Assembly (NCBI GenBank): GCA_963811255.1
Contig: CAWEQI010000005.1
Span: forward strand, 8,893-72,892
Direction: 5' to 3'
Length of the DNA stretch: 64,000 nt
From: an uncultured Alphaproteobacteria bacterium
Lineage (GTDB): Bacteria; Pseudomonadota; Alphaproteobacteria; Sphingomonadales; Sphingomonadaceae
Shown piece by piece: positions 34,960 through 64,000 of the stretch (positions are counted from its first letter, which is position 1; every line of letters starts with the position of its first letter). The notes beneath the pieces are model-generated. The model had not been told where the DNA came from. It was given only the letters and a program-made list of their open reading frames with translations, and made no database searches. Made by a program: the position numbers and the translations under genes.

Positions 34960-37860
34960 TCAGCCGCGTTCGCCCTGGGGCGCCACGGCCGGGGCCGGCG
35001 GCGGCGGACAGGCCTCTTCCATCTTGACCACCGAGCCGTCGAGGCACTGCTTGTAAGTCGCCACGGGCGCCGGCGGAGGCGGCGGCGGCGGGGCGGCTTC
35101 GGGCGGAGCCGGCGGCAGCGGAGCCGGCGGCGGCGGAGGCGGCGGCGGAGCAGGGTGGAAGTTCCGCCGAAGCGACACCAGCCAGGTGCGCGGCATGCCC
35201 GGCTGGCCGAGCACCGCGCCCAAGCGAGGTGGTCACATCCTCCTTGGTCACGAAGTAGTACTTGTTGAAGATGTTCTTGACTTCGAGCGACAGCTCCCAG
35301 TCGTCGTCCGGCGACTTGTAGTAGATCCGCCCGTTACCAATAAAGCGGCCTGGCATCTCGGCTCCACTTGGTATTGAACGTCTCGGAGTAGATCTTCGAC
35401 TGATAAGTGGCCGTCGAGGCGGATACCGACGTCGCTGTCGTTCGCCATCCTGATAATCGTACTGAGCGCCAAGGCTCCAGGTCCACTTCGGCGTGAACGG
35501 CGTGACCTCGTTACCCGTGAGTCCGGCCGGACGCAACCGAAGCCTTGTCGTACTTGAAGTCGATGTAGCTCAGCGATCCATCGAGCTCGAAGCCGTCGGT
35601 GGGATGCGCCGTCATCTCCAGTTCGAAGCCCTTGACGTTGGCCTTGCCGATATTGCGCGGCTGGATGCAGGGCACCGAGGGGCAAGCTGACAACGTGAGA
35701 ATGATGTCGTTGAACTTGTTGTAGAACGCGGCACCGTTCAAGCGCAGGCGCCGGTCGAACAAGTCGGACTTGAAGCCCACCTCGTAGGTGGTCAGCGTCT
35801 CGGGCTTGAAGGACTTGATCTGGTTGCATGGCGCCGGCGGCACGTAGCCCGGTGCGTCGCATTCGCCGGCCGACGGGCCGAAGAACGGGCGCGGATTGAC
35901 GCCGCCGCCCATGTAGCCGGTCGAGATCGAGGCATAGGCCAGGAACTGAGGCGAGAAGCGATAGTCCGTGACCGCGCGCCAGTCCCAGCGGTGCCCTTGA
36001 ACTCGCCCTGCACTCCATAAAGGCCGGTCAGCAGACAATTCGGCGTATTTCCGATGCTGGTCGGCTCCGGAAGGTACCCGTGCCGTTCGACGAAGAATTC
36101 GCAAATCGGCGGCAAGCCTGGACGCGCGCAGCGACCCTTGCTGGACAACGGCACTGTCCCGTCCGGATTGCTCCGGAAGTACGTGTAGGTCTTGTGGTCC
36201 CACGAGCGGCGCACGCCGCCCGTGATGCTCCACGCGTCGGTGGGATGGATGGTGCCGTTGAAGAACAGCGCCTTTGACGTGGATGGCGTGAGGTCCGGAC
36301 CATGCACGAAGTCGATGCCCGCGTAGTTCAGATCGACGCGCGCGGTGTAGCTTGTTGTTCTGCTTCATATAGAAGCCGCCGAACGTGTACTCGAAAGAAG
36401 CCGTTGCCAAGCTCGCCGTTGAGGCGCAGTTCCTGGCTCCAGGCCTTTGCGTTGAGCTGGTTGTCCAGCTGCGCCATCGGCACAGGCGTGGCGTCCTGAT
36501 CCTGGCCGAAGTTCGACTGATACTTGCGGTATGAACTGATCCACGTGAGCTTGAATTGGTCGCTCAGATCCCACTGGACATTGCCCATCACGCCCCAGCC
36601 GACGAAATCGGAGTTCTGCAGCGCGGCATAGGGCTTGTATGGCGCTTGCTGAGTGGGAATCATCCCGTCGAGGAAGTTCGCGTAAGTCATGTAGCGCGGA
36701 TCGACGCCGGAGGGCAACGTCCGCCCGCTATCGCAGCTATATTGCCCGAACGGCACGAAGTGACAGTCGACCGGCACCGGCAAGCCGTTCTTGCCCGGCA
36801 GCCAGGCGCCCCCGTTCGCGTTCAGTCGCCGGATCGGATCGAGCGCGGGATCGAACGGACTGGTCCGCGGAGCCCGCAGGCTTTCCAGCAGCAAGCAGGA
36901 TGTCCGGAACCGGGCTGTCGTGCTCATTCGTGTAATCGGCTGAAATATTGATATCGAGGTTGCTGGTCGGCTGCCACCGTAGCGCGAAGCGGCCGGCCTG
37001 CATGTTCTGACGCCCCTCCTTGTTGCTGATCGCATAGTGGCCGCGGGCATCGTTCGCCGGCACATTCGAGTTCGGGTGCGTGAGCCCGTAATCGATCATG
37101 TCGACCCAGCCGTCATGGCTGATCGCCACGCCCGAGACGCGTGCCGAAACGGTATCGGTGATCTTGATGTCGGCCATTCCGCGCAGCTTGAGTTCGTTGA
37201 ACGAGCCATAGCCCGCCTCGAGATAGCCGGTGTTCGAGCCCTCCGGCTTCTTGCTGAACAGCTTGATCGCGCCGCCGATCGAGTTCTTGCCGCCGAGCAC
37301 GCCTTGCGGACCGCGCAGGATTTCGACCCGGTCAACGTCCATCAGGTTGAGCAGCGAAGCGGAAAGCGTCGGAATGTAGACGTCGTCGACGTAGATGCCG
37401 ACGCCCGGTTCGAGCGCGTAGTCGAAGTCAGTCTGGCCGACGCCGCGGATAAAGGCGATCAGGCCTACGCCGCCAGTCTGCGGCTGCGGGTTCAAGCGTG
37501 ACGTTCGGCGCCTGCGACGCCACCTGGGCGATATCGGTCTGGCCGCGCTGGTCGAGCATCGCCCCGTTGACCGCGGTGATCGCGATCGGGGTGTTCTGCA
37601 GGCTCTCCTTGCGGAATTCCGCCGTGACGATGATTTCGTTGTTCTGATTGCTCCCGCCTCCCGGTGGAGTCTCGAAGGTCGGGGTTGCCCGCGGTGGCCT
37701 GCCCCTGAACGGTCGTGGTGACCGCCGCCGGGGGCTCCCCGGGTCCTTTCGTCGAAGTCGAACCCTGGTCCTGTTGGGCGGCTCCCTGCGCATAGGCTGG
37801 GCTGGCGAGCGCAGCGACGAGCGCGAGAGACGAAACAAATCCGGCGTGCTTCAAAGTCAT
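34960..37860 (-). pseudogene. TonB-dependent receptor, multiply frameshifted
   Basis: GGGAGGAAG RBS and signal peptide MTLKHAGFVSSLALVAALASPAYAQ. Plug IIVTAEFRKESLQNTPIAITAV, barrel segments and terminal PRTWLVSLRRNF are all present but spread over all three frames. About 11 junctions, near 37680, 37495, 36900, 36405, 36360, 35995, 35530, 35445, 35400, 35345 and 35220. Confidence 0.85.
35066..35149. repeat. (GGC/GGA)n triplet tract encoding poly-proline on the minus strand
   Basis: Runs CGGCGGAGGCGGCGGCGGCGGGG and CGGCGGCGGCGGAGGCGGCGGCGG. A shorter run lies at 34995-35007. Confidence 0.7.
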
Positions 37861-40283: not shown

Positions 40284-41484
40284 TTAGCGCTCCGCCGGGC
40301 TCGTCGTCTCGAGCCCCTTGGTGAACATCAGCCGCTCGAGCCGGTAGTCGGGATCGCGCACCATCCGGCGCATGCCCTCGAGCGCCGCTTCCAGTCGTTC
40401 GCCGCCGCCGCAGGCGTGGAACACGAAATCCTTGTAGGCGCAGGCCTGCGGGCTGGTCTTGTCGAGGAAGATCTGCCGCCGCTCGTCGGCCCACACGTCG
40501 AGCAGCGCGGGATCGGCGCCTTCGAGGATGACCGCAGCGAGCGTCGGCCACAGCGAAAAGGCGTCGAACAGCCCGGTGGTGAGGCCGAAGCCGCCGGTCG
40601 GATTGGTCACGTGCGCCGCGTCGCCGGCCAGCACCACGCGGCCGACGCGGAAGCGGGAGGCGCAGCGCTGGTGCATCTTGTAAGGCGCGGACTGGACCAG
40701 CTCGTAGCCGCCCGTCCCCGGCAGCAGGTGCGCGGTACGCGTCGGGGATGCGCTCGACGTAGCTTGCCTCGGGCAGCGCCATGTCTTCCATGAAGGTGCA
40801 GCGCCACAGCCCGTCACTGGTGATCTTGACGATCACCGCGCCCCATTCGTCGTCGACCACCAGCGTCGATTGCAGGTACCCGCCGCTCTCGAAATCGTGG
40901 CGCAGGTTGGTGGCGACGAAGCGTTCGGGCCAGGTCATGCCGTCGAACGAGAGGCCGAGCGCCTTCCTCACCGCGCTGCCGGCGCCGTCCGCGCCGACGA
41001 CATAGCGGGCGCGCAGCTCGATCGGTCCATCAGCAGTGTCGGCCTGAACGGTGACGCCGTCGGCATCCTGCGACAGCCCCGTGAAGGCCGTCTGCCAATG
41101 GATTTCGGCATTGGGCATCGCCTCCAGCCGCCGCTGGCAGATCTCCGCCAGCCGGTCCTGCCCGAGCTGGATGTTGTAATTGAAGCGGGTGATCCGCTCG
41201 AGCACTTTGAGGTCGTAAGGCAGGCGCTCGCCGGTCTTCTTCACGAACCACAGGTAGTCGTCCTTGGTGTAGCCGATCCGCTCGGCTTCCTCGCGGATGC
41301 CGAGCCGTTCGAGCCCGTCGAGCATCGACCAGTGATAGACGCAGGCGCGCGGGGAATCGTTGATCCCCGCCTCCGCCTCGATCAGGCACACCTCGACCCC
41401 GGCCTGCGCCAGGCCGAGCGCGGTCACGAACCCGGTCGGGCCACCGCCGACGACGATCACGTCATGCATTGCGCCGGCCACCAT
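40284..41484 (-). pseudogene. FAD-dependent monooxygenase (aromatic hydroxylase-like), one frameshift
   Basis: DVIVVGGGPTG and GADGAGSAVR lie in one frame; LAGDAAHVTNPTGGFG lies in another. Junction near 40740 in a CGCGC run. Start ambiguous (TTG 41508, ATG 41484 or 41469). Confidence 0.8.
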
Positions 41485-48839: not shown

Positions 48840-49763
48840 CTAAGGCTGGGGGGTCCCCGGCCTGATCGGCCATCCGCCCAGGTCCAGCTCCGGCGGGAAC
48901 ACCCGCATGAAGGCCTGCACCATGTGGATCTGCCCGCCGTACACCTTGAACATTTCCCAGGCGGTGAGTCTGTCAGAGCCGGGGCCGCGGACGTTCCACG
49001 ACAGCCGCATGATGACGATTCCCGTGCGCTCGTCGACCACGATGTCGCGGACGGTGACCTTGCCGAGGCGTTCGAAGATAGCCAGCGACTGCTTGCCGAT
49101 GTCCTCGCAGCCGGGGGCGAAGGTGCATCCGGGCCCCGCCATCAGCGCGCCGTTCTCCAGACGATAGGCGTCCTGGGCGAAAGGCGTGCCGATCGCGTCG
49201 AAGGTCTTGGCGTTGCTCAGGCCCCGTGGGTAGTACATCGCAATCCGGATGGCCTGCTCGCGGGTGGCGAGCTGGTCGGGCTTGGGGACGATGTTCATCG
49301 CTTCCGGCGGGGCGCCTTTCAGGCCGCTGAGGGCGAAGATCAGCCCATCCGCGCGGCTGCGCGTCGCCACCAGTTCGAGCTCGTCGATCCTCTCCTGATC
49401 GTCGAGCTTGATCCGCACCACCAGGATGATCGGCGCACCCGATTCCTCGACCAACGTGCCGGCGACCGCCTGCTCCGCGCGCGCGTCGAGCACGTCCTGG
49501 CGGTAGCCGCGCAGGCGGGTGACCGAACGCACGAGGCCGACCTTGTCGAGCGGCTTCGCAATCCCGTCCTCCGTCACCCGCAGGCTCGGGGACACCGCGA
49601 GGTGGCTCACGTCGTGATTCTTGAGCGCGTAAAGCACCTCGGTGATCTTGCCGCGCAGGCACTCCCGGTCGCACGCCGGCGCCGCGACCGCCGGGGCCCC
49701 GGCTTGTGCGGCCAACGCGGCGAATGACGTCAGCAGCAGACACAACGCAAGAACGGCCTTCAT
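48840..49763 (-). CDS. exported hypothetical protein, paralog of 49821-50792
   Basis: Signal peptide, then CDRECL. Blocks HD..HLAVSP.LRVTEDG, IDELELV, YRLENG and AWEMFKVYGGQIHMVQAF are shared with the neighbour. Confidence 0.7.
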   Translation of the reverse strand: MKAVLALCLLLTSFAALAAQAGAPAVAAPACDRECLRGKITEVLYALKNHDVSHLAVSPSLRVTEDGIAKPLDKVGLVRSVTRLRGYRQDVLDARAEQAVAGTLVEESGAPIILVVRIKLDDQERIDELELVATRSRADGLIFALSGLKGAPPEAMNIVPKPDQLATREQAIRIAMYYPRGLSNAKTFDAIGTPFAQDAYRLENGALMAGPGCTFAPGCEDIGKQSLAIFERLGKVTVRDIVVDERTGIVIMRLSWNVRGPGSDRLTAWEMFKVYGGQIHMVQAFMRVFPPELDLGGWPIRPGTPQP

Positions 49764-49820: not shown

Positions 49821-50792
49821 TCAATTGTCGCCCCACCCCGGCCCCATGTGGTAGGGCACGCCCACGCCGACCGCTTCGACCTGGCGGATGAGGCCGTTGT
49901 CGATCTTGAAGGATTCGGCGAGCAGAATCGAGCTGGGCTTGTTGAAGAAGCCGACGTCGACCTTGGTGCCGTTCGGCATGGTCAGGGTCTTCTTGCAGCC
50001 GCAGTGGTCGAACACGGCGAGCGAGAAGACTTCCTGACGCTCCTCGTCGATCACCGCGAAGCGGCGGTCATGCACCTTGGTCACCACGCCGTAGAGCCCG
50101 GTTTCGAATTGCGCCTTGCAGCCCATGCCGCCGATATCGACCGGGCCCATCTTGACGATGCCGGGATTGTTAGTGGTGGCAGTGCCGTTCTCCAGCCGGT
50201 TGCAGTCGGGGGTGAACGGGTAATAGCCCTTGCCATCGTTGTTCTGGATGCCGTCGAAATAATAGTTGGCGACCTGGGCCAGCTCCTGGCGCGAAAGGTG
50301 TCGCGCGGTCGGGGCGTTCCACACCGGGTTGGGCACCTTCATCTTCTCGAGGTTGGCATAGCCGGCGTCGTTCCACGCCGGCCCGCCGCCGGTGCGATAA
50401 GTGATCAGCTCGATCTCGGAGATTTGGTTGACCTGCAGCTTGACCCGCATGCCGAGGACGAGGCCGTGGCCGTTCTCGTCCATCGTCGCGTAGACCCCGA
50501 ACTGGCCGGTGGCGGGATCGGCGATGACGTGGCGATAGGCGCCGACCTTGTCGGCGGTCTGCCACAAGCCGTTGTCGAGAGCCATTTCCTGGCCGTTCTC
50601 GGTGTAGCGCACATCGGGCGCCAGCGGCAGGCTCTTGGCGTCGTGGTGGGCGAGCGCGGTCAGCACTTGGCCGGCGAGATCTTCCATGCACGCCCGCTCG
50701 CACGGCAGCTTGACCGTGCCGGCCGCCGCGGCGGGCGCGGCGAACGACAAGGCGGCGGCGGCCATGGCGGCGGTGGTCAGTCTGGTGAGCAT
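49821..50792 (-). CDS. exported hypothetical protein, paralog of 48840-49763
   Basis: Signal peptide, then CERACM. Blocks HD..SLPLAP.VRYTENG, ISEIELI, NRLENG and AESFKIDNGLIRQVEAV. AGGGGGA RBS 15 nt after the MFS stop. Confidence 0.7.
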   Translation of the reverse strand: MLTRLTTAAMAAAALSFAAPAAAAGTVKLPCERACMEDLAGQVLTALAHHDAKSLPLAPDVRYTENGQEMALDNGLWQTADKVGAYRHVIADPATGQFGVYATMDENGHGLVLGMRVKLQVNQISEIELITYRTGGGPAWNDAGYANLEKMKVPNPVWNAPTARHLSRQELAQVANYYFDGIQNNDGKGYYPFTPDCNRLENGTATTNNPGIVKMGPVDIGGMGCKAQFETGLYGVVTKVHDRRFAVIDEERQEVFSLAVFDHCGCKKTLTMPNGTKVDVGFFNKPSSILLAESFKIDNGLIRQVEAVGVGVPYHMGPGWGDN

Positions 50793-50807: not shown

Positions 50808-52223
50808 TCAATTCATCCGCCCTTCGGCGGCGTCCTCGGCATTGAGGCGTTCGACCTCCCGACGGAAGGGCTTGAGGCCCATCCAGTTGACCACCAGCGC
50901 CAGCGGCATGAAGATCGCGTGCAGCAGCATCAGCGACCATTTGAGGTCCGCGGGCGAGGTGAACACGTAATCGGTCGTCAGCCCGGTGATCAGCGGTGCG
51001 AGGCCGACGGCGACGACGGTGTAGATGAACAGGTACAGCGTCATCACCTGCCCGCGGATCTGGTTGGGGGTGATCGCCAGCATCACCGCGTTGAGCATCG
51101 GCCCGCTCATCCCGAGCGTGAGGAAGGCGACCGCGTTGAAGGCCATCGACAGGCCTGCGGTGGGCATTACCGGCATCAGCACGGCGAACGGGATCGCCAG
51201 CAACCGGGTGTAGACGATCACGCGATAGGCCCCAGCGGGGTCGCCGCGGTTCTGGAACCATTCGGCCCACTTGGTGCCGAGGACCAGCCCGAGCGACATG
51301 ACGGCGAGCGAAAGCACGCCCGAGATCATGCCGTATTCGGCCGGCGACCAGCCGTAGGTCCGTTGGAAGAAGGCCGCGCCCCACTGGCGGCTGCCGACGT
51401 CGAGCGAGCCGAGGGTGAGGCCGATGAACAAAGGCCCGAACACCGCAAAGTGCAGCCACAGGTAACGAACGGTGGTCATGAACCCGGCCTTGTCGGTCGC
51501 CAGCCGCATGTTGCGCCGCGCCGGCTCCCTGATCGTCAGCAGCAGCAGCGAGACGAGCAGCCCCGGCAGACCGACGCCGATCAGCACCACCTGCCAGGGC
51601 TGCAGCGCGCCGACCAGCGGCAGGGTCGGCGCGCCCCAGTGCGCGACCAGCCAGATCACCACTCCGCCCGCCAGCAGGGACAGCCCGCCGCCCGCGACCG
51701 AACCGATCTGCATCACCGCGACCGCCCGCGGCAGCCGCTCGCGCGGGAAGCAGTCGGCGGTGATCGAATAGGCGGTGGGGCCGTTGAACGCCTCGCCCGC
51801 GCCGACGAAGAAGCGGGCGATGAACAGCTGGGTGAAGTTGGCGGCGAGGCCGGTGGCGGCGGTGGCCAGGCTCCACACGATCAGCCCGCCCATCATGATC
51901 CACTTGCGCGTCCAGCGGTCGATGTAGCGCGAGAACGGCACCGCCACGAACGCGTAGAACAGCGCCTGGGTCGGCCCAAGCAGCCAGCCGGCCTGGGTGT
52001 CGGTCAGCTGGAACTGCTCCTTGATCTGCTGGATCAGCAGGCCGAGGATGTTCTGGTCGAGCAGCGCGAACGTGGTGATGACGGCGAGGACGCCGACGGT
52101 GTACCACGCCTGGCGCGGCGGCGGGAACGCCTCGGTGTCGATCGGCACGGCGGAAGCGGCGCTGGCGCCGGAATCGAATGTCGGCGGCATCGCCAGCTCG
52201 CCGCCGCCTTCAACGCTCGCCAT
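50808..52223 (-). CDS. MFS transporter
   Basis: Polytopic, 471 aa. FSRYIDRWTRKW loop motif. AGGAAAGGG RBS. Confidence 0.85.
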   Translation of the reverse strand: MASVEGGGELAMPPTFDSGASAASAVPIDTEAFPPPRQAWYTVGVLAVITTFALLDQNILGLLIQQIKEQFQLTDTQAGWLLGPTQALFYAFVAVPFSRYIDRWTRKWIMMGGLIVWSLATAATGLAANFTQLFIARFFVGAGEAFNGPTAYSITADCFPRERLPRAVAVMQIGSVAGGGLSLLAGGVVIWLVAHWGAPTLPLVGALQPWQVVLIGVGLPGLLVSLLLLTIREPARRNMRLATDKAGFMTTVRYLWLHFAVFGPLFIGLTLGSLDVGSRQWGAAFFQRTYGWSPAEYGMISGVLSLAVMSLGLVLGTKWAEWFQNRGDPAGAYRVIVYTRLLAIPFAVLMPVMPTAGLSMAFNAVAFLTLGMSGPMLNAVMLAITPNQIRGQVMTLYLFIYTVVAVGLAPLITGLTTDYVFTSPADLKWSLMLLHAIFMPLALVVNWMGLKPFRREVERLNAEDAAEGRMN

Positions 52224-52316: not shown

Positions 52317-54982
52317 TCAGAAGCTGCGCCGCACCGACACACCCCATTCACGCGGACGACCGACCTGGCCGTAGGCATAGCCGAAGTTGTTCAGCAGGTT
52401 GGTGATGCCGACGTAGTAGAGCTTGTCGGTCAGATTGGTGACGTAGCCGGCGACCTGCCACGACTTGTCCGGGCTGTACCAGGTGATGCGGGCATTGACG
52501 ATCGCGTAGCCCGGCTGGACCGGGATCGGATCGATCAGGCTGGTCGTGTAGTAGATCTTGCTTTGGTAGGTCACGTCGAAGTGCGGCACCAGGCTGCCGT
52601 GCGAGCCCATGTCGATCTCGTACTGCGTGCCGAAGGTCAGCTTCCACTTCGGCACCTGGGTCTGCGGGCTGGCGAGCGTGGTCGAGTTGAGGTCGCCCGT
52701 CGGGTTAACCCCCGGCGCCAGCGATTCTTGTAATGGAAATCGGTGTAGCCGAGCGCCGCGGTCACCAGCCACTCGGGCACAGGCCGGGCCTCCAGCTCGG
52801 CCTCGAAGCCCTTGATCGTCGCGTCGCCGCCATTGCCGTAATAGAAAATGGTGCAGGGCCGCGCGGCCGGCCGGTTGGGTGCCCGGGATGCAGCCGTTGG
52901 TGTTGGACAGCAGGAAGGTCTGGATGTCCTTGTAGTCGGTCCAGAACGCGTCGGCGTTGAAGCGCACGCGGTGGCCGAGCAGCAGCGACTTGAAACCGGC
53001 TTCGTAAGCCGAGGCGTGCTCCGGCCCGAAAGTCAGGTTGACGTCGCCGGGGAAGAACGGCCGCGGATCGTTGCCGCCCGGCGGTGAAGCCGGTCGAGTA
53101 GGCTGCATAGAGAAGCACGTTGGGCGTGACCTGGGCATTGAGCGACACGCGCGGGTTCCACTGGTTGATCGTGCTGTCGGGCGCCGCGCCTTGCAGGTTC
53201 GGCGGTTGGCCGACGTTCTGCCGGAAATACGAATAGGTCTTTTTCTCATGCGTGTAACGCAACCCACCTTCGATCGAGAACATGTCGTTGAAAGCGAAAT
53301 CGGCGTGCGCGAAGCCCGAGATGTTCTTCACCGTCGACTTGTCGTCGACATACATGTCGAGCAGGAACGGGATCGCGCCGTAGGGCGGCTGATAGATCGA
53401 AAAGCCGGCCGTCTGCACCCGCCCCGAGTTGTCGTTGAAGGTATCGAGGTAGAACGCGCCCAGCGTGTAATGCAGCCGATCGTTGAACGCCGAGCCGTTC
53501 AGGCGGAATTCCTGGGTGAACTGGTGGTGCGCCACCTCGTTATAGGCCTCGCGCATGGGCAAAGCGAAGTCGCTCTGGCCGAATTCGCCGGTGTAGCGGC
53601 GATAGGCGGTGATCGAGAGAAGGTCGATGTGGTCGCTCAGGTTGATGTCGAGATTGTTCGACACGCCCCAGGACTTGACCGTGTTGACGTTCGGGTTCTG
53701 GAACTGCTCGAGCGAGTTGCCCCCGCCAGGATTGCCGAAGATCGCGTAGGATACGTACGGGATCCTGCGGATTAAGCGCCGCGAGCAGGGCCGCGACTTG
53801 CGGCGCCGACGGATCCAGCGTCGCCGGCGTTCCCGGGGGAACCGTCGCCAGCGGATTGGCGAGCCCGTAGAGTTGCCCCCAAGGGCCGCCGATGAACAAG
53901 GCAAGCCCGTTAGGCGTGTTCGGCGGCCGTGCCGGGCCACTGCCGTCGGGCAGCAACGTGTTATCGGCGAAGGAGACACCGTTGCTTCCGGGCAGCAGCG
54001 TGCTCGGTCGGGCGCCTCGGACCGGTCGTCGGTGTAGTCGGCCTCGATGTTATCTTCCCAGCTGCCGCTGTGGACCCGCAATTGTCCGCGGGTGGTGAAC
54101 ACGTTGCCGCCGCCGAGCGTGCCGACCTGGCAGCCGTTGCGGGTGCCGCCGGTCCCGCCGTCGTTGTCGAGACCGGTCTTGGGCAGACGTGCCGGCGACG
54201 TCAGGATGGGCGCAGGCGAAGTTGAGCAGCTTAACCCAGCCGTCGCGGCTGTTGTAGCTGGCGGCGAGCCGCAGCGCGGCCACGTCCTTGACGATCGGCA
54301 CGTCGATCGCGCCCTTGATCTGGTAGTGGTTGAAGCTGCCGTAGCTCGCCTCGACGTAGCCCGAGTTGTCGCCCTGCGGCTTCTTGTTGAAGATGCGGAT
54401 CGCGCCGCCGACCGAATTGCGGCCGTTGAGGGTGCCTTGCGGCCCGCGCTCGATCTCGACTCGGTCGATGTCGAGCAGCTCGAACACCGAGCCGAAGGTC
54501 GTCGCGTAATAGACGTCGTCGATATAGAAGCCGACCTTGGGCTCGAAGGCGAAGCTGAAGTCGATCTGGCCGATGCCGCGAATGAAGGCCTGGTTGGTCT
54601 TGCCGAAGCCGTCGCCGCCTTCCGTCATCGTCACGTTCGGCGCGGCCTGGGCGACGTCGACCACGTTGGTGATGCTGCGCTGCTGGATCTGGTCGGAGTT
54701 CACCGCGGTGATCGACATCGGCACCTTCTGCAGCGCCTGCGAGCGGAACTGCGCGGTGACGATGATCTCGTTCAGTTTCCCGCTGTCGTTGTCCTTGCTG
54801 CTGGTGTCCTTGGCAGCCCCACCTTTGGCGGCGGCGGTGTCCCCCTTGTCCTTGTCCTGAGCGAGCGCCGGAGCGTTCAAGGCAAGGCCGACGGCCAACG
54901 CCGAAATGCACCCGAGCCACCGCGCTCGGTGGGCCACCGTGCGGCCAGTGCGTTTACGCGAATTCTGAAGCCAATCTTCCAT
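52317..54982 (-). pseudogene. TonB-dependent receptor, multiply frameshifted
   Basis: GGGAGAG RBS. Signal peptide and plug (NEIIVTAQFRSQALQKVPMSITAV, IERGPQGTLNGRNSVGGAI) are followed by barrel segments in shifting frames and terminal REWGVSVRRSF. At least 6 junctions, near 54190, 54015, 53775, 53080, 52860 and 52725. Confidence 0.85.
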
Positions 54983-55025: not shown

Positions 55026-55745
55026 TTACCCCCAGCGCCCCGGTTCCGGCCCCATCACGGCGACCGGAAACAGATCCTCGCGGATGGCCTGCACTGACGG
55101 CCGCTCGGCGATCCGCCGGAGCCAGGCCTCGACCACCGACGGCACGGCCAGGCCTAGCGTGCCGAACTGCGCAAGGTGCGGATAGACGGCGATGTCGCCC
55201 AAGGTGATATGCTCGCCAGCGAGCCATTCGTTGCCAGCCAGATCGGCGGCGACGCGATCGGCGGCGGTCAGCATGGCCTTCGTCGAGGCCTTGAGCTGGT
55301 CGGCCCCGAAACCCTCGACGGCCCTGCGCCACAGAGCGGCGCGCTCCGGCAGCAACCGCTCGAGCCGCGTGCGCGCCGACGCCGCCATCCGTCCGCCGAG
55401 CGCCGCCCAGCGGACAATCGCGAGGTGCGGCGCGATGTGCGTTTCGACGTATTTGCCCCACTTGCGCGCGGTGTAGCGCTGGCGCGGCCCGTCGCCGATC
55501 AGCAGCGGCTCGGGATGGGTCTCGTCGAGATATTCGAGGATGGCGAAGCTCTCGAACAGCTTGCGGCCGTTCTCCTCGAGCAGCGGCACGGTCCCGTGGC
55601 AGTTGATCGCCAGGTATTCGGGCGAGTGCTGCTCGTGGTGGACCATGTCGAGCTTGTGCAGTTCGGGTTCGAGGCCTTTCTCGGCCAGGACGATGCGAAC
55701 GGCCGCGGAATGGGCGGAGCCCGGCGCGTAATGCAACCGCATCAT
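55026..55745 (-). CDS. glutathione S-transferase family protein
   Basis: GST N-domain (LHYAPGSAHS...INCHGTVPLL...ESFAILEYL) and C-domain (WLAGEHITLGDIAVY). ATGA-type overlap with the upstream GST. Confidence 0.85.
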   Translation of the reverse strand: MMRLHYAPGSAHSAAVRIVLAEKGLEPELHKLDMVHHEQHSPEYLAINCHGTVPLLEENGRKLFESFAILEYLDETHPEPLLIGDGPRQRYTARKWGKYVETHIAPHLAIVRWAALGGRMAASARTRLERLLPERAALWRRAVEGFGADQLKASTKAMLTAADRVAADLAGNEWLAGEHITLGDIAVYPHLAQFGTLGLAVPSVVEAWLRRIAERPSVQAIREDLFPVAVMGPEPGRWG

Positions 55746-56524
55746 GCGGCTGCCACCTCTTCCACGCCCAGGCGCTGGCGCACTTCGGCCGCCCGCTGGG
55801 TGATGAAGCCTTTGCCCATTCCGAGCGCCGCCTGCAGGCCTGGACGCGCATGGCACGCCCGCAGCCAGCGCATCAGGTGCGGACTGGCCCGGTCGTTCAC
55901 TTCGTTCTCGCGCCCGATTGGCAGAGCGTAGAACGTGGCGAACACGCAGATGTCCGCCAGCGAGAAGGTTTCTCCGGCGAGCCACTCCTCGTCTGCCAGG
56001 ATGCCGTCGAAGCGGCGGATGGCGTCGGACACCCGGCGTTCGGATTCCGCGATATCCTCCGGCGGGGTCGCCTGGAACATCAGCTTTTCCCAGGTGGCCC
56101 GCCGCTCCGCAAGCGGGATGCGGTCCAGCTTGCGCCTGAGTTCCTGCGGGTCTTCCCCGGCGAAGCGCGGGGCGGCGAGGCGGTTCGAGGCGATCATCGC
56201 CAGCGACGGGGCGACGACGTTGTCCATGAAGCGCATCAGCACCCGCATCTGCCAACGGCGGAACGGGTCTTCCGGCCGCAGCGGCGGTCCGGCGAAAGCC
56301 TCGTCGATGTATTCCATCGCCGGGGTCGATTCGGTCATCACGAAGCCGTCGTGGACGATCGCCGGGATCGTCCCGTCGGGGTTGATCGCCAGGAACTCGG
56401 GCGCGTGGTGCTCGTGCGCGCCCATGTCGACGTAATGATAAGTGAACGGAACGCCCTTCTCATGCAGGCAGAACAGCGGTTTGCCCGAATTGGCGTTCGG
56501 CTCCCACGTGTGGACCTCAAGCAC
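55742..56524 (-). CDS. glutathione S-transferase, LigF (beta-etherase)-like
   Basis: ANSGKPLFCLHEKG...INPDGTIPAIVHDGFVMTEST...LRPEDPFRRWQMRV...FSLADICVFA parallels my recollection of Sphingobium LigF. GTG start chosen at 56524; the upstream ORF part is encoded by the repeat. Confidence 0.75.
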   Translation of the reverse strand: MLEVHTWEPNANSGKPLFCLHEKGVPFTYHYVDMGAHEHHAPEFLAINPDGTIPAIVHDGFVMTESTPAMEYIDEAFAGPPLRPEDPFRRWQMRVLMRFMDNVVAPSLAMIASNRLAAPRFAGEDPQELRRKLDRIPLAERRATWEKLMFQATPPEDIAESERRVSDAIRRFDGILADEEWLAGETFSLADICVFATFYALPIGRENEVNDRASPHLMRWLRACHARPGLQAALGMGKGFITQRAAEVRQRLGVEEVAAA

Positions 56525-56585: not shown

Positions 56586-56600
56586 TTTGATTCGGTCAAT
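56586..56600. promoter_or_regulatory. AT-rich 15-mer TTTGATTCGGTCAAT upstream of the GST pair
   Basis: 13 of 15 identical to TTTGATACTGTCAAT at 59256-59270. Imperfect palindrome TTGA-N5-TCAA. 62 nt upstream of the GST start. Confidence 0.35.
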
Positions 56601-56619
56601 AAGGGGCGAATAGATTCTC

Positions 56620-56698
56620 CCCTCCCACTAGCGGGAGGGACAGGAGGAGGGTCATAAAGCCAGCCCCCTCCCCTAACCCCTCCCGCAAGCGGGAGGGG
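56620..56698. repeat. two GC-rich hairpins (CCTCCC-loop-GGGAGG type)
   Basis: CCTCCCACTAGCGGGAGG (56621-56638) and CCCCTCCCGCAAGCGGGAGGGG (56677-56698). The second lies 10 nt downstream of the stop at 56708 and may act as a terminator or REP. Confidence 0.6.
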
Positions 56699-56707
56699 CA
56701 TGCAGGC

Positions 56708-57505
56708 TCATTTGAACTCGGTGTGGCCCTCGGCGTCGACCGGATTGCGGTCGTTTTGCGAACATTCGAACTCGAGCAGCTTGCCGTAACGATCGCGCTG
56801 GTAGCGTGCGGTGGTGTGGAACGGCTCGGCCAGGGCCTCGGGATCGGTCATCGTCATCTCGTCTTCGAGAATGTCGTGATTCTTGGGATCGAGATGAATC
56901 CGCTCGACCAGGTGGAACTTGTCCGAGTGCGGATAGCCGGTCGAGATGTCGAGCGCGGGATCGATGCCGATCGTGTCGACCACCAGCGTATCGCCGTCCC
57001 AGTGGCCGATCGAATCGCCCATGTAGGTCGGGTCGGGATCGACCTGGTGCTTGCGCCCGTCGGTCCAGATCGTGCGCGTCTGCATCCATGCTTCCTGGTT
57101 GATCGTCACCCGGCCGGGGGCGAAGATGAACTCGTAGGGATACTGCGCCAGGCGCATGATCCCCGGCATGCCCGGCGGGCTGCAATACGAACGCTCACGC
57201 GGAATCTGGCCGTGGTTGGCCTTGGCCTCGGCGACCATCGCGTCGTGCTTCTTGAGGTACTCGCCCTTGAGCTGGGGCTGCGGCTGCTTGCCGACGCCCG
57301 GGACCGGCCCTTGAAACGTCAGGAACCACACGCCGCCCCAGTCGGGCAGCTTGTCGAGCGCCGCGTAGTGCCCCTTGGGGTTGGCCGCGCCCTGCCCCGG
57401 CTTGACGCCGGCCGGCGGGGGCGACTTGGTCGGCGCGCCGAGCTGGGCGGCGGCCGGCGTGGCAAGCAACAGGGCGGCGAGCGGGAGCGCGAACGACAGC
57501 CGCAT
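56708..57505 (-). CDS. exported hypothetical protein, type A (A2)
   Basis: Signal peptide MRLSFALPLAALLLATPAAAQ. Blocks CSPPGMPGIM and GHWDGDTLVVDT are shared with 58322-59236. The start overlaps the upstream stop by 1 nt. Confidence 0.75.
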   Translation of the reverse strand: MRLSFALPLAALLLATPAAAQLGAPTKSPPPAGVKPGQGAANPKGHYAALDKLPDWGGVWFLTFQGPVPGVGKQPQPQLKGEYLKKHDAMVAEAKANHGQIPRERSYCSPPGMPGIMRLAQYPYEFIFAPGRVTINQEAWMQTRTIWTDGRKHQVDPDPTYMGDSIGHWDGDTLVVDTIGIDPALDISTGYPHSDKFHLVERIHLDPKNHDILEDEMTMTDPEALAEPFHTTARYQRDRYGKLLEFECSQNDRNPVDAEGHTEFK

Positions 57506-57918
57506 CAGCCCGCCTTGCCCGAGCTGGGCTTGCCCGAGGTCATCTGCCCGAGCGTGGTGCCGTCGGCGAGCTTGATCGCGGCGAAGCTGCCGCCCTTGTC
57601 GCCGCTGCGCAGCGGGTGCACGAACAGCGTCACGTGATCGCCGGGCTTGACGGTCGTGCGCTTCCAGCCCTCCTGCACGAGGTTGTTGGGCGCGGTCATC
57701 TCGATCGCCCAGTGCTCGGCGCCTTCGGGCGCCTTGACGTCGGCCTCGATATAGCTGTGCGGGTTCTGCCACTTGAATTTGGTGATGGTGGCGTCGAGCG
57801 CGACCGTCTTGGTCATGTCGAACATGGCGTAGGAATGGTGCGCGGCCGCCGGGACGCTGACGAAAGCCAGCGCGGGGAGCAGCCAACGGCTAACAGGATG
57901 GATCATCGCATGTCTCAC
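57505..57918 (-). CDS. exported small protein, type B (B2), DUF6152-like (tentative)
   Basis: Signal peptide ends PAAA and is followed by HHSYAMFD. WQNPH and VKPGDHVT blocks. Paralog of 57922-58332. Start is either GTG 57918 or ATG 57906. Confidence 0.75.
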   Translation of the reverse strand: MRHAMIHPVSRWLLPALAFVSVPAAAHHSYAMFDMTKTVALDATITKFKWQNPHSYIEADVKAPEGAEHWAIEMTAPNNLVQEGWKRTTVKPGDHVTLFVHPLRSGDKGGSFAAIKLADGTTLGQMTSGKPSSGKAG

Positions 57919-57921
57919 AAT

Positions 57922-58332
57922 CTAGAGCTGCGGAACGTTCACCGGCGTGCCGTTTTTCGGCAGTCCGGAATCGAGCACTTTACCATTGGGGAACTTCAAG
58001 TCGAGGAACAGCCCGCCGGGCTGGCCGTCGCGCAATGGATTCATCCGCACGGTGACCTTGTCACCGGGCTTGACGATGTCGCGATTCCAGCCTTGGCGCT
58101 TCAAATTGTTGGGGCTGTTGAGCTCGAGGCTCCAGCGGGTGGTCTTGCCGCCGTCGGGCACGTCGACTTCGAGGAATGCGTGGGGGTTGGTCCACTGGAA
58201 CTCGTGGACCGTGCCGTCGAGCGTCATGATCTTCTTCTGGTCGAACATGGCGAAGCTGTGGTGCGCTGCCGCCGGGACGGCAACCGCCGCGACCGCGCAC
58301 ACCGCGGCCAGCGCGATGCCTTTATTTATCAT
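57922..58332 (-). CDS. exported small protein, type B (B1), DUF6152-like (tentative)
   Basis: Signal peptide ends PAAA and is followed by HHSFAMFD. WTNPH and VKPGDKVT blocks. The start overlaps the A1 stop region by 11 nt. Confidence 0.75.
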   Translation of the reverse strand: MINKGIALAAVCAVAAVAVPAAAHHSFAMFDQKKIMTLDGTVHEFQWTNPHAFLEVDVPDGGKTTRWSLELNSPNNLKRQGWNRDIVKPGDKVTVRMNPLRDGQPGGLFLDLKFPNGKVLDSGLPKNGTPVNVPQL

Positions 58333-59236
58333 CGGGAACTCCTTTGAGCTCGCTCTGCCCACGCTCCTCGGCCTTTTCGCTGCCGAGTTCGGTGCCGGGC
58401 AAGTGCTCGTTGTATTGCAGGATGCACTCGGCCTCATTGATGTCGGTGTAATCTTCCCTGAGGAAGTCCTTGGTGGACGTCCATTCGCCGTCCCACATCG
58501 GGGGATCGGTCATTATGTACTTGATGCGCATCGTCTTCCCGCCGTTGATGAGGTTGATGCGCTCGATCATGTGGAACTGGTCGTCGATTGGGATGCCCAT
58601 GTCGATGTAATGGTTGTCAGGCTCGAAATAGCGGGTGTCGACCACCAGCGTGTTGCCTTCCCAGTGGCCGATCGATTCGCCATTGTAGCTCGGCACGACA
58701 ATGTCGGGGTCGGTGTGCTTGCGCCCGTCCATGAAGATCTGGCGCACCGAATTGTTGAACCCGCTGATCATGAAGATCGCGTCCGGAAGCTGGATGAAGT
58801 CCTGCGGCCACACGCGGGTCATGATCATCGGCATGCCCGGCGGGTAGCACTGGCCGATCGCGTCCCGGTACGTCTTGCCCGCGGCCGCCGCCTTGGCGCC
58901 TTCGATCAGCGCCTCGCGCCCGGCCTTGGAGAATTTCGGGTACGGCGGCCCGAACATAAATTTGGTGAAACCCTGGCGCAGGTCGACGAACCAGGTGCCG
59001 GTGAGGTTGAACGGCGGTTTGGGGCGCGGCTTGTTGACGTTGGCCGGGGCGAGTACGCCGAGCTGCCCGGGATGCTTGGGCACCATCTTGTCGAACTGCG
59101 CGGGCGGGATCGGCTTGGCCGGGCGATCGACCTTCGGCTGCGCCGGCAAGTCGCCTTCCGCCGGATAGGCGTCTTGCGCCAGCACCGGAGCTGCGGCCAA
59201 CGCCGCGAGAACAAATCCTGCAATGGCCTTACGCAC
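58322..59236 (-). CDS. exported hypothetical protein, type A (A1)
   Basis: GTG start 4 nt after GGAGAGG. Signal peptide ...AAAPVLAQ. Blocks CYPPGMPMIM and GHWEGNTLVVDT are shared with 56708-57505. Confidence 0.75.
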   Translation of the reverse strand: MRKAIAGFVLAALAAAPVLAQDAYPAEGDLPAQPKVDRPAKPIPPAQFDKMVPKHPGQLGVLAPANVNKPRPKPPFNLTGTWFVDLRQGFTKFMFGPPYPKFSKAGREALIEGAKAAAAGKTYRDAIGQCYPPGMPMIMTRVWPQDFIQLPDAIFMISGFNNSVRQIFMDGRKHTDPDIVVPSYNGESIGHWEGNTLVVDTRYFEPDNHYIDMGIPIDDQFHMIERINLINGGKTMRIKYIMTDPPMWDGEWTSTKDFLREDYTDINEAECILQYNEHLPGTELGSEKAEERGQSELKGVPDDK

Positions 59237-59255: not shown

Positions 59256-59270
59256 TTTGATACTGTCAAT
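59256..59270. promoter_or_regulatory. AT-rich 15-mer TTTGATACTGTCAAT upstream of the A-B-B-A operon
   Basis: 20 nt upstream of the A1 GTG. 13 of 15 identical to 56586-56600. The minus strand reads ATTGACAGTATCAAA. Confidence 0.35.
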
Positions 59271-59301: not shown

Positions 59302-59322
59302 CCCCCTCCCGCAAGCGGGGGG
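59302..59322. repeat. GC-rich hairpin CCCCCTCCCGCAAGCGGGGGG
   Basis: Same CTCCCGCAAGCGGG core as 56677-56698. Lies 12 nt downstream of the hydrolase stop. Confidence 0.55.
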
Positions 59323-59333
59323 ATTGCTTGCCT

Positions 59334-60418: not shown

Positions 60419-60419
<1 letters not shown>
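59334..60419 (-). CDS. alpha/beta hydrolase
   Basis: HGGGGQG oxyanion-type block and nucleophile elbow THSAGG. The ATG at 60419 overlaps the stop of the last monooxygenase fragment. Confidence 0.85.
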
Positions 60420-61675
<1,256 letters not shown>

Positions 61676-61733: not shown

Positions 61734-61749
61734 CTCCCGCTTCCGGGAG
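61734..61749. repeat. hairpin CTCCCG-CTTC-CGGGAG
   Basis: 6-bp stem 8 nt downstream of the TPP enzyme stop. Same family as the other CTCCCGC hairpins. Confidence 0.5.
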
Positions 61750-61756
61750 AGGAGAG

Positions 61757-63495: not shown

Positions 63496-64000
63496 TCAGG
63501 CGAACACAGGCATCATTCGCTGGACGAACCAGAAGGCGGCGGGAATGCCCAGCACGTAACCTGCATAGAGCCGCGGGCGACCGACGAGCACGAAGTTCAA
63601 CCGCCGGCTCTCGTGACGCACGCGGTGCACCACCCAGAGCAGCGCCAGCACCGCGAATATGAAGCTGAGCTGCCCGATCTCGACCCCGACGTTGAACGAC
63701 AACAGCGCCGTCGCCAGCTCGCCGCGCGGCAGACCGACTGCTCGCAATGCTGAAGCGAAACCGAAACCGTGCAGCAACCCGAAAGAGCTGGACACGAGGA
63801 TCGGATGGCGCGCGGCCAATCCCTCGGGATGAGGCCAGGCGACCTCCCGCGCCACGAACAGGATCGACAGCGCGATCGCTGCTTCGACCGGCGCCTCGGG
63901 CAGCCGCACCACGTCGAGCGCGGACAGCGCCAACGTGACCGAATGGGCCAGCGTGAACCCGGTTACCGCCAGCAGCACCCGGTGCACGCTGCCGGCGAGC
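63496..64000 (-). CDS. HupE/UreJ-family membrane protein, 5' end beyond window
   Basis: FTLAHSVTLAL, FGLLHGFGFA and FNVGVEIGQL blocks of the HupE_UreJ_2 type. The frame stays open to the window edge. Confidence 0.75.
   Translation of the reverse strand, partial: LAGSVHRVLLAVTGFTLAHSVTLALSALDVVRLPEAPVEAAIALSILFVAREVAWPHPEGLAARHPILVSSSFGLLHGFGFASALRAVGLPRGELATALLSFNVGVEIGQLSFIFAVLALLWVVHRVRHESRRLNFVLVGRPRLYAGYVLGIPAAFWFVQRMMPVFA

Follow-up and report, generated by a model that had tools for sequence, protein, structure and literature searches.

The DNA considered here is a stretch of 64,000 nucleotides (nt), hereafter the window, from an uncultured bacterium of the Sphingomonadaceae (GenBank assembly GCA_963811255.1, contig CAWEQI010000005.1, positions 8,893 to 72,892), in which four intact and tightly packed genes on the minus strand encode two kinds of predicted exported proteins, A and B, in the order A-B-B-A. 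The first gene, A1 (58322-59236), encodes 304 amino acids (aa) from a GTG start with GGAGAG situated 4 nt upstream, and is followed on the same strand by B1 (57922-58332; 136 aa), B2 (57505-57918; 137 aa from a GTG, with an alternative ATG at 57909), and A2 (56708-57505; 265 aa). A1 and A2 are predicted beta-barrels similar to calycins and fatty-acid-binding proteins (FABP), A2 belonging to the "mainstream" A2-type subfamily, whereas B1 and B2 are DUF6152 proteins with a predicted oligonucleotide/oligosaccharide-binding (OB) fold. A1 and B1 overlap by 11 nt, B1 and B2 are separated by 3 nt, and B2 and A2 overlap by 1 nt (TGATG). Since homologues of A2 measure 261-266 aa, its start is placed at the ATG at 57505. 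Genes were called with a codon-position GC log-odds caller; the open reading frames (ORFs) and the sequence itself agree with the lengths and junctions given for a four-gene operon in an earlier note, which a model had made from the letters of this DNA.

Each of the four N-termini consists of a basic n-region, a hydrophobic core, and an AxA site, as read from the sequence, and contains no twin-arginine motif. Because these are the parts of a Sec-type leader and the twin-arginine motif is lacking, export by the Sec pathway is predicted, in accordance with the cleavable signal peptides that had been assigned to all four proteins before. In A1, the cut is predicted after A20. Across the family, a heuristic recognized leaders of the signal peptidase I type in 93 of 121 A proteins. 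The assignment of A as a lipoprotein was rejected, as most "lipobox" matches fall within the hydrophobic stretch of normal signal peptides.

Concerning B, both proteins are clear members of the Pfam family DUF6152 (PF19649), with E=7.5e-40 and 135.4 bits for B1 and E=4.3e-33 and 113.8 bits for B2 (gathering threshold 27 bits), and the domain is present in 120 of 120 B homologues among the matches listed. The earlier note had likened B to this family, which proves correct; the family itself is uncharacterised. Neither the B1 sequence nor the B family profile found anything below E=0.2 in the PDB. The AlphaFold2 model of B1 (predicted local distance difference test, pLDDT, 82.5) shows a barrel of five strands, the third and fourth of which are separated by a helix, and its Foldseek matches are without exception OB folds (Rim1/SSB, the LysRS anticodon domain, PriB; E from 3.7e-4, template modelling (TM) score 0.6-0.68 by target). 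As modelled, B is a Sec-exported OB-fold protein.

The most constant feature of B is found at its predicted mature start. Among 85 B proteins extracted from Proteobacteria and Acidobacteriota, all of the full-length DUF6152 proteins (85/85) carry His-His directly after the AxA, or near-variant, end of the signal peptide; AAA is followed by HHSFAMFD in B1 and by HHSYAMFD in B2. In these 85 sequences, H24, H25, P50, and H51 are conserved to 100%, E70 to 96%, N49 to 93%, and D31 to 86%, and position 30 is occupied by Phe or Tyr throughout. Cleavage by signal peptidase is predicted to expose His-His as the first two residues of mature B, the codons being located at 58258-58263 in B1 (His24-His25) and at 57835-57840 in B2 (His27-His28), both on the minus strand. 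This terminus had not been picked out in the earlier note. At the level of sequence, a histidine brace is defined by an N-terminal His that arises from leader removal, together with a further invariant His (PMC10952591), and B fits this definition with a predicted N-terminal His bearing a free amine and with H51 as candidate second His for a T-shaped N3 copper site. The His-His terminus may point to a putative metal-type site with N/O donors, and is put forward as a lead only.

Concerning A, neither A1 nor A2 has a match in Pfam or NCBIfam, 45 diverse members yielded no Pfam match at E<=1, and the A1 sequence and the A family profile found nothing below E=0.2 in the PDB, such that the previous statement that A belongs to no characterised family holds. 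A1 has more than 2,300 homologues, all of them named "hypothetical" and none with a Pfam domain. A search of 1.84 billion cluster representatives (50% identity) with the A profile gave 10,786 matches at E<=1e-3 and 4,487 at E<=1e-10. The AlphaFold2 model of A1, built from 74 sequences (pLDDT 78, predicted TM score 0.75), starts with a strand (80-84), which is followed by a helix (104-118), a loop containing the CxPPGMP motif (126-136), a second helix (137-140), eight strands, and C-terminal helices. Its top 50 Foldseek matches in the PDB are all intracellular lipid-binding proteins (iLBP; CRABP, FABP, CRBP), with E from 2.8e-4 and target-normalised TM scores of 0.5-0.6. On the strength of the model, A is a Sec-exported barrel of calycin or FABP topology. 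G-x-W in the first strand, which packs against a conserved basic residue close to the last strand, is a signature of calycins, and in 121 A members the first strand exhibits G80-x-W82 with a conservation of 0.97 and 0.94, respectively; R260, invariant in the closer alignments, is its putative packing partner. Near-invariant in the same 121 members are C130, C271, R165, D170, R172, E193, E225, R226, D244, and E268, of which C130 and C271 likely constitute a disulfide or a redox pair.

The association of the two proteins was followed in 80 genomic loci, which were fetched by a pattern derived from A alone and subsequently scanned for A and B with hidden Markov models. The loci originate from Sphingomonadales, Caulobacterales, Steroidobacteraceae, Woeseiaceae, Bryobacteraceae, Vicinamibacterales, and Terriglobia, are denoted by L and a number where single ones are mentioned, and contain 132 A and 86 B domains. 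A same-strand B is found within 400 nt of 82 of the 132 A domains, with at least one such pair in 57 of the 80 loci; 80 of the 86 B domains adjoin an A or another B (6 do not), and 11 A+B pairs share a single open reading frame. In addition, five independent representatives of 50% identity clusters are fusion proteins of 377-487 aa with DUF6152 at the N-terminal and A at the C-terminal side. This adjacency across three phyla, together with the B-A fusions, supports A and B as a functional exported pair, as the earlier note had supposed. The gene orders seen are AB, BA, ABBA, BAAB, BABA, BBA, AAB, and BAAA. B proteins are more conserved than A proteins, and the more numerous and more variable A domains suggest that A is a variable specificity subunit and B its more constant partner.

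Among the cluster representatives there are also A-A tandem fusions of 450-530 aa (P0379, P0389, P0406). In metagenome-assembled genomes (MAGs) of Acidobacteriota and Caulobacteraceae (L049, L039, L043), 6-10 A and B genes are arrayed in tandem within 5-12 kb, with up to ten copies in L049. Beside A genes, genes for DUF6644 proteins (predicted to reside in membranes, with weak similarity to DUF2214) occur in pairs and in divergent orientation in a Steroidobacteraceae MAG (L004, 6749-7240 and its neighbour) and on a plasmid of Novosphingobium humi (L087, 5089-6064); these proteins may be inner-membrane partners.

A1 and A2 are 36% identical over 198 aa in pairwise alignment (E=1e-26) and 29% identical in the family alignment; the corresponding values for B1 and B2 are 49% over 121 aa (E=2e-42) and 42%. 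Judged from these alignments, far beyond chance, both are pairs of true paralogues, and the identity of B1 and B2 at roughly half of their positions is as described earlier. Equally, the blocks CxPPGMP and GHW(E/D)GxTLVVDT, previously noted as common to the two A proteins, are real and kept across the A family. A1 represents a distinct subfamily with an N-terminal extension of about 55 aa, the members of which (in L001-L011 and L073) are 38-73% identical. Many A proteins of Steroidobacteraceae and Acidobacteriota share 35-40% identity with A2, and one in L073 shares 52%; in the family alignment, A2 stands nearer to A proteins from other phyla than it does to A1. B1 is as near to B proteins of other phyla (0.46-0.49) as to B2 (0.42).

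These relationships bear on the description of the operon as mirror-duplicated, which applies to the order of the genes and to nothing beyond it. A recent inverted or palindromic duplication of an A-B unit, with a symmetry that is mechanistically meaningful, would account for the A-B-B-A order, yet it is exceedingly improbable. The four genes lie on one strand, the DNA repeats between paralogues are all direct and equal to conserved coding motifs, the paralogues have diverged to the low identities given above, and A2 has closer relatives in other phyla than A1. Furthermore, the order is old, because it is kept among Sphingomonadales relatives at 55-90% identity, and the same components occur elsewhere as B-A-B-A and in other orders: A1-type and A2-type genes accompany two B genes as B-B-A plus a divergent A in L073 (Steroidobacteraceae) and, less clearly, as B-A-A-B in the Bryobacteraceae (L006, L007). 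As the repeats are not inverted and the paralogues are not mutual closest relatives, an inverted duplication was rejected. By sequence comparison, the locus combines two copies of one two-protein module that separated long ago, their placement side by side being old as well, and the symmetry of its order has no evident meaning. Between A2 (56973-57031) and A1 (58635-58693), the 59 nt that encode GxSIGHW(D/E)GxTLVVDT show 88% identity, the proteins being 36% identical overall; strong constraint combined with a bias for G or C at third codon positions is the probable cause, with local gene conversion as the alternative.

The module is part of a same-strand array that comprises genes for a homologue of HupE_UreJ_2 (named after its orthologue in L001), a thiamine pyrophosphate (TPP) enzyme, a flavin adenine dinucleotide (FAD) monooxygenase, an alpha/beta hydrolase, A1, B1, B2, A2, two glutathione S-transferases (GSTs), a TonB-dependent receptor, and a transporter of the major facilitator superfamily (MFS). 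The two GST genes (55742-56524 and 55026-55745, minus strand; Pfam GST_N and GST_C) retain their synteny with the module in L001 and L085. They are followed on the same strand by the receptor (52317-54937; plug and barrel pieces in three reading frames) and by the MFS gene (50808-52223; Pfam MFS_1), which is syntenic with the cluster and whose product is 75% identical to the L001 orthologue. Pfam supports the identities that had been proposed for the hydrolase, GST, receptor, and transporter neighbours, with the receptor split over three frames. Just past the MFS gene, two same-strand genes (48840-49763 and 49821-50792) encode proteins of 307 aa and 323 aa without Pfam match. A wider catabolic island at 40-49 kb of the window contains genes for short-chain dehydrogenases/reductases (SDRs), beta-lactamase-fold hydrolases, SnoaL, CMD, an amine oxidase, and a second FAD monooxygenase.

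Several genes of the window switch frame in comparison with intact colinear orthologues, namely the receptor (52317-54937, three frames), the FAD monooxygenase (60419-61675, four segments), and one further receptor and one further monooxygenase (35219-37670 and 40431-41463). The receptor of the window is colinear with those of L085 and L086, its pieces lying in frames -1, -2, and -3. So many frameshifts within 64 kb suggest indel errors of the assembly rather than pseudogenes.

The HupE_UreJ_2 membrane protein is encoded directly after A-B-B-A in L082 (10607-11722) and four genes upstream of the module in the window (63496-63987) and in L001 (4861-5838), that is in only three of the eight Sphingomonadales loci. 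Large G8-domain/CEMIP beta-helix proteins flank B-B-A on the Croceibacterium atlanticum plasmid NZ_CP011453 (L086, 5102-15697) and the module in L073 (1-2373), and these neighbours may hint at a class of substrate such as glycan-derived compounds.

Concerning the TonB-dependent receptors, two orthogroups accompany the module. The first (around 808 aa; 55-78% identity among L002, L003, L082, L083, and L085) is situated directly upstream of A1 in L002, L082, L083, and L085 and in divergent orientation in L003. The second, TBDR-D, is found downstream of the module in L085, L086, and the window, with 79% identity between L085 and L086 and around 60% in the plug towards the window copy. A receptor adjoins the module in L002, L003, L082, L083, L085, and L086, is two genes away in the window, and is absent in L001, and Croceibacterium aestuarii possesses the same array as the window but without a receptor. 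Family-wide, receptors are modestly enriched at the immediately adjacent gene (9/157 vs 8/450, odds ratio 3.4, p=0.02). Typing of the adjacent receptors by substrate with NCBIfam models remained below the family cut-offs throughout, except for the receptor of L007, which passes a siderophore-receptor model. The module is self-contained, and its link with TonB receptors is strongest in Sphingomonadales.

A further link among the genes of this neighbourhood is provided by a short element upstream of them. The 13-bp imperfect palindrome TTGACAGTATCAA (59257-59269, minus strand) is located 20 nt upstream of the A1 start and is a candidate operator, and a second copy, TTGACCGAATCAA (56587-56599, minus strand), is located 63 nt upstream of the first GST gene, at the same position relative to GST as in L085. 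The consensus TTGAY-N3-ATCAA, or TTGAY-N3-RTCAA in a wider form, has these 2 matches in the window, where 0.08 would be expected, and allowing one mismatch adds no site. The element is found in seven other Sphingomonadales loci and is always oriented with the downstream gene: it precedes A1 in L002, L082, L083, and L084, the upstream receptor in L002 and L083, and GST in L085, is situated in L001 at the 3' end of HupE_UreJ_2 before the TPP-enzyme gene, and precedes both B-B-A and a G8-domain gene on the plasmid of L086 (2 matches vs 0.01 expected). The remaining loci contain 10 matches in 832 kb. The "AT-rich upstream motif" of the earlier note exists, being more precisely a specific conserved 13-bp element.

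Beside the module, L002, L083, L086, and L074 possess an orthologous gene of the MarR family (60% identity between L083 and L086), of which there is none in the window, and L074 exhibits a palindromic copy of the element at the start of this gene. The 13-bp palindrome (TTGACnnnATCAA) is probably the target of a dedicated MarR-type regulator, and the common element and the adjoining MarR genes would be explained by a MarR-controlled regulon that covers the module, the receptors, and the GSTs. Synteny and the common cis-element thus bear out the tie to TonB receptors, GSTs, and the MFS transporter that had been proposed earlier, within Sphingomonadales.

Other palindromes in the spacers are of a different kind. 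Two palindromes similar to repetitive extragenic palindromic (REP) elements occupy 56619-56700, where they together form a larger hairpin just past the A2 stop, and a further GC-rich one is situated between the hydrolase gene and A1 (59303-59326). The REP-like palindrome CCCCTCCCGCAAGCGGGAGGGG recurs in several intergenic spacers, including 61736-61752, with 5 matches where 0.09 would be expected. The hairpin past A2 corresponds to the downstream "GC hairpin" reported before; the palindromes are present as stated, but they are recurrent and REP-like and, because the one after A2 has no T-run, not recognisable as an intrinsic terminator. Scans for sigma-70 promoters and intrinsic terminators between 56400 and 59600 yielded nothing above chance. 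REP-like palindromes also inflate upstream extensions of ORFs, e.g., the read-through "PLPLAGGVRGG" of the GST ORF.

Taken together, we consider it quite possible, if short of probable, and the likeliest of the readings compared here, that A and B are a periplasmic pair which handles a ligand or a metal and serves TonB-dependent uptake. The two proteins would act as a complex outside the cytoplasm, in which B would hold a metal ion through its free N-terminus and its histidines and A would provide a pocket, entered through the flexible CxPPGMP loop between the two helices, i.e., where iLBPs have their portal. The complex would capture cargo imported by the receptor, either a metal chelate or an organic compound that is handled with the help of the bound metal, and would hand the ligand to a carrier of the inner membrane, for instance the MFS transporter. 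In Sphingomonadales, one A1-type and one A2-type pair would have been kept as A-B-B-A beside one or both of the receptor orthogroups. A precedent may be seen in DdvT, a TonB receptor for an organic substrate in a sphingomonad with an MFS route (PMC6874591).

Several observations weigh against such a role. No characterised homologue of A or B was found, the E-values of the fold searches are modest (around 3e-4) with root-mean-square deviations of 5-8 Å, the conserved CxPPGMP loop of A1 is modelled at pLDDT <50, and no histidine is conserved in the 121 A members. The DNA fetched for 19 of the 80 loci contains A but no B. Genes immediately beside the module vary widely across the family, with 153 Pfam families among 136 genes, including RpoD, RelA/SpoT, PBP1A, and RlmL, and the census of these 136 genes revealed neither a recurrent pathway partner beyond the receptors nor metal-homeostasis genes that recur beside the module. 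Since such varied neighbours, housekeeping genes among them, are found outside Sphingomonadales, the link to TonB receptors may be specific to this lineage.

The same census bears on a role in the buffering or chaperoning of periplasmic Ni, Co, Cu, or Zn, independent of TonB and comparable to CusF, CopC, or ZinT. The position of His-His on an OB fold recalls CusF, ZinT is likewise a calycin-like periplasmic metal binder, and HupE_UreJ_2 genes are situated near the module in L082, the window, and L001. However, the presence of these genes in no more than three of eight Sphingomonadales loci, the lack of CopA/B/C/D, Cus, Znu, and Nik genes among the neighbours, the lack of conserved His or Met-rich motifs in A, and a probability of only 2.5% in the hhalign comparison of the B profile with CusF render this role very unlikely.

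Two of the findings on conserved residues could also be read as signs of catalysis. Both subunits keep their charged residues unchanged in all paralogues, which suggests conserved chemistry rather than mere binding, and A and B might be a two-subunit periplasmic metalloenzyme with a mononuclear metal centre in B (brace-like or of the 2-His-1-carboxylate type) and the substrate pocket in A, which would oxidise or otherwise transform small molecules. The N-terminal His and the second invariant His match the sequence definition of the brace (PMC10952591), the arrays of up to 10 copies in Acidobacteriota resemble enzyme families diversified by substrate, and in L073 and L086 the flanking proteins include G8/CEMIP beta-helix proteins. 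The module nevertheless has no recurrent redox partner, cytochrome c being encoded by 3 of the 136 neighbours; centres of this type are not known on an OB fold, and a catalytic precedent is lacking. An enzymatic role is therefore unlikely.

A carrier without any metal, which is essentially the idea of the earlier note, is in keeping with the catabolic surroundings in the window (SDRs, SnoaL, CMD, FAD monooxygenases, hydrolases, GSTs, receptors, MFS). The A barrel would ferry hydrophobic or aromatic substrates from the receptor to the MFS transporter, and B would be a docking or lid subunit whose His-His is structural or serves docking. FABP and CRABP possess arginine clamps for carboxylates, which the conserved R165, R172, and R226 of the FABP-like A recall, and regulators of the MarR family, like those encoded beside the module, often sense aromatic acids; DdvT (PMC6874591) offers a precedent here as well. 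Three invariant His and a near-invariant Glu in B, kept across three phyla, are, however, hard to explain by docking alone, invariant A residues independent of the pocket persist across paralogues that are only 25% identical, and many modules are situated beside housekeeping genes without any catabolic context, such that we regard a metal-free carrier as rather doubtful.

The most far-reaching reading of these data would make DUF6152 a new class of exported metal centre. N-terminal His-His, in a brace-like arrangement or in an N4 set of amine, His2, and a distant His, would be presented on an OB fold and act only together with a calycin-type partner of the large A family, constituting a very widespread and so far unrecognised two-subunit periplasmic metalloprotein that is either a metallophore or metal receptor for TonB import or an oxidative enzyme. 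We consider this a speculative reading with a limited chance of being correct. Were the binding of a metal true, N-terminal His-His on an OB fold would be a new scaffold among the few metal sites with N-terminal histidine. The A family forms more than 10,000 clusters at 50% identity, yet is covered by neither a Pfam nor an NCBIfam model, and both A and B are abundant in the sampled lineages of soil and sediment, i.e., Acidobacteriota, Steroidobacteraceae, Sphingomonadales, and Caulobacterales. How substrates of TonB receptors other than siderophores cross the periplasm is poorly known, and a dedicated two-protein module would fill this gap. Handles for experiments are given by four possible point mutants of B, the candidate operator, the candidate MarR regulator, and the two receptor orthogroups.

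A search of the literature returned nothing that mentions DUF6152 or PF19649 and nothing relevant on DUF3604 with TonB. Nor was any paper found in the searchable literature that mentions the pairing of A with B, the constant His-His start of B, the fusion proteins, the candidate operator, or the two orthogroups of receptors. For DUF6152 itself, of which B1 and B2 are clear members, the present analysis adds a predicted OB fold, the universal His-His at the predicted mature start, the further invariant His, the near-invariant Glu, and a near-constant neighbour, or fusion partner, in an A family that is situated outside Pfam.

The predicted topology of A (strand, two helices, meander barrel) and the G-x-W in its first strand are similar to the calycins and iLBPs (FABP, CRABP, CRBP). 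Despite this similarity, no sequence profile of lipocalin or FABP families matches A, which is about twice their size, exported, and distinguished by the Cys pair C130/C271, by the CxPPGMP loop between the helices, and by a partner protein. ZinT (YodA), a periplasmic calycin-like zinc binder with a His-rich N-terminus that is accessory to ZnuA, combines a calycin-type barrel and an N-terminal His motif in one chain, whereas here these two features are split between A and B; A has no conserved His, and ZinT is not among the top Foldseek matches of A1.

CusF, a periplasmic OB-fold chaperone of Cu(I)/Ag(I), and the bacterial OB-fold (BOF) family resemble B as small periplasmic OB-fold proteins with histidines close to the start of the mature chain. 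The hhalign comparison mentioned above, made with an approximate CusF sequence, is not significant; the Met-x-Met/His-Met-Met site of CusF is not conserved in B, and the gene context differs. In the N-terminal Ni/Co site of NikM/CbiM, the metal is bound by the N-terminal amine, by the His at position 2, and by a remote His. The donors available in B (free N-terminus, His2, and a distant invariant His) would by analogy give the same square-planar N4 kind of site; NikM is an integral membrane protein without homology to B, such that the analogy concerns the donor atoms only.

The proteins with a histidine brace (LPMOs, CopC, PmoF1, YcnI, X325) share with B an N-terminal His created by the leader, a further invariant His, and export, and several known members act in copper transport (PMC10952591). 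There, the scaffold is an Ig- or cupredoxin-like sandwich, whereas B is predicted to possess an OB fold and has an invariant His also as its second residue. The DdvT system of Sphingobium SYK-6, which concerns aromatics derived from lignin, is similar in its combination of a sphingomonad TonB receptor with an MFS transporter and catabolic enzymes and demonstrates that receptors of this sort can bring in organic substrates; periplasmic proteins of the A or B type are not described in the abstract of that publication (PMC6874591). In concept, the A-B module is a variant of accessory proteins of TonB uptake and of metal sites with N-terminal histidine, and would constitute a new category only if the reading of B as a metal centre is true.

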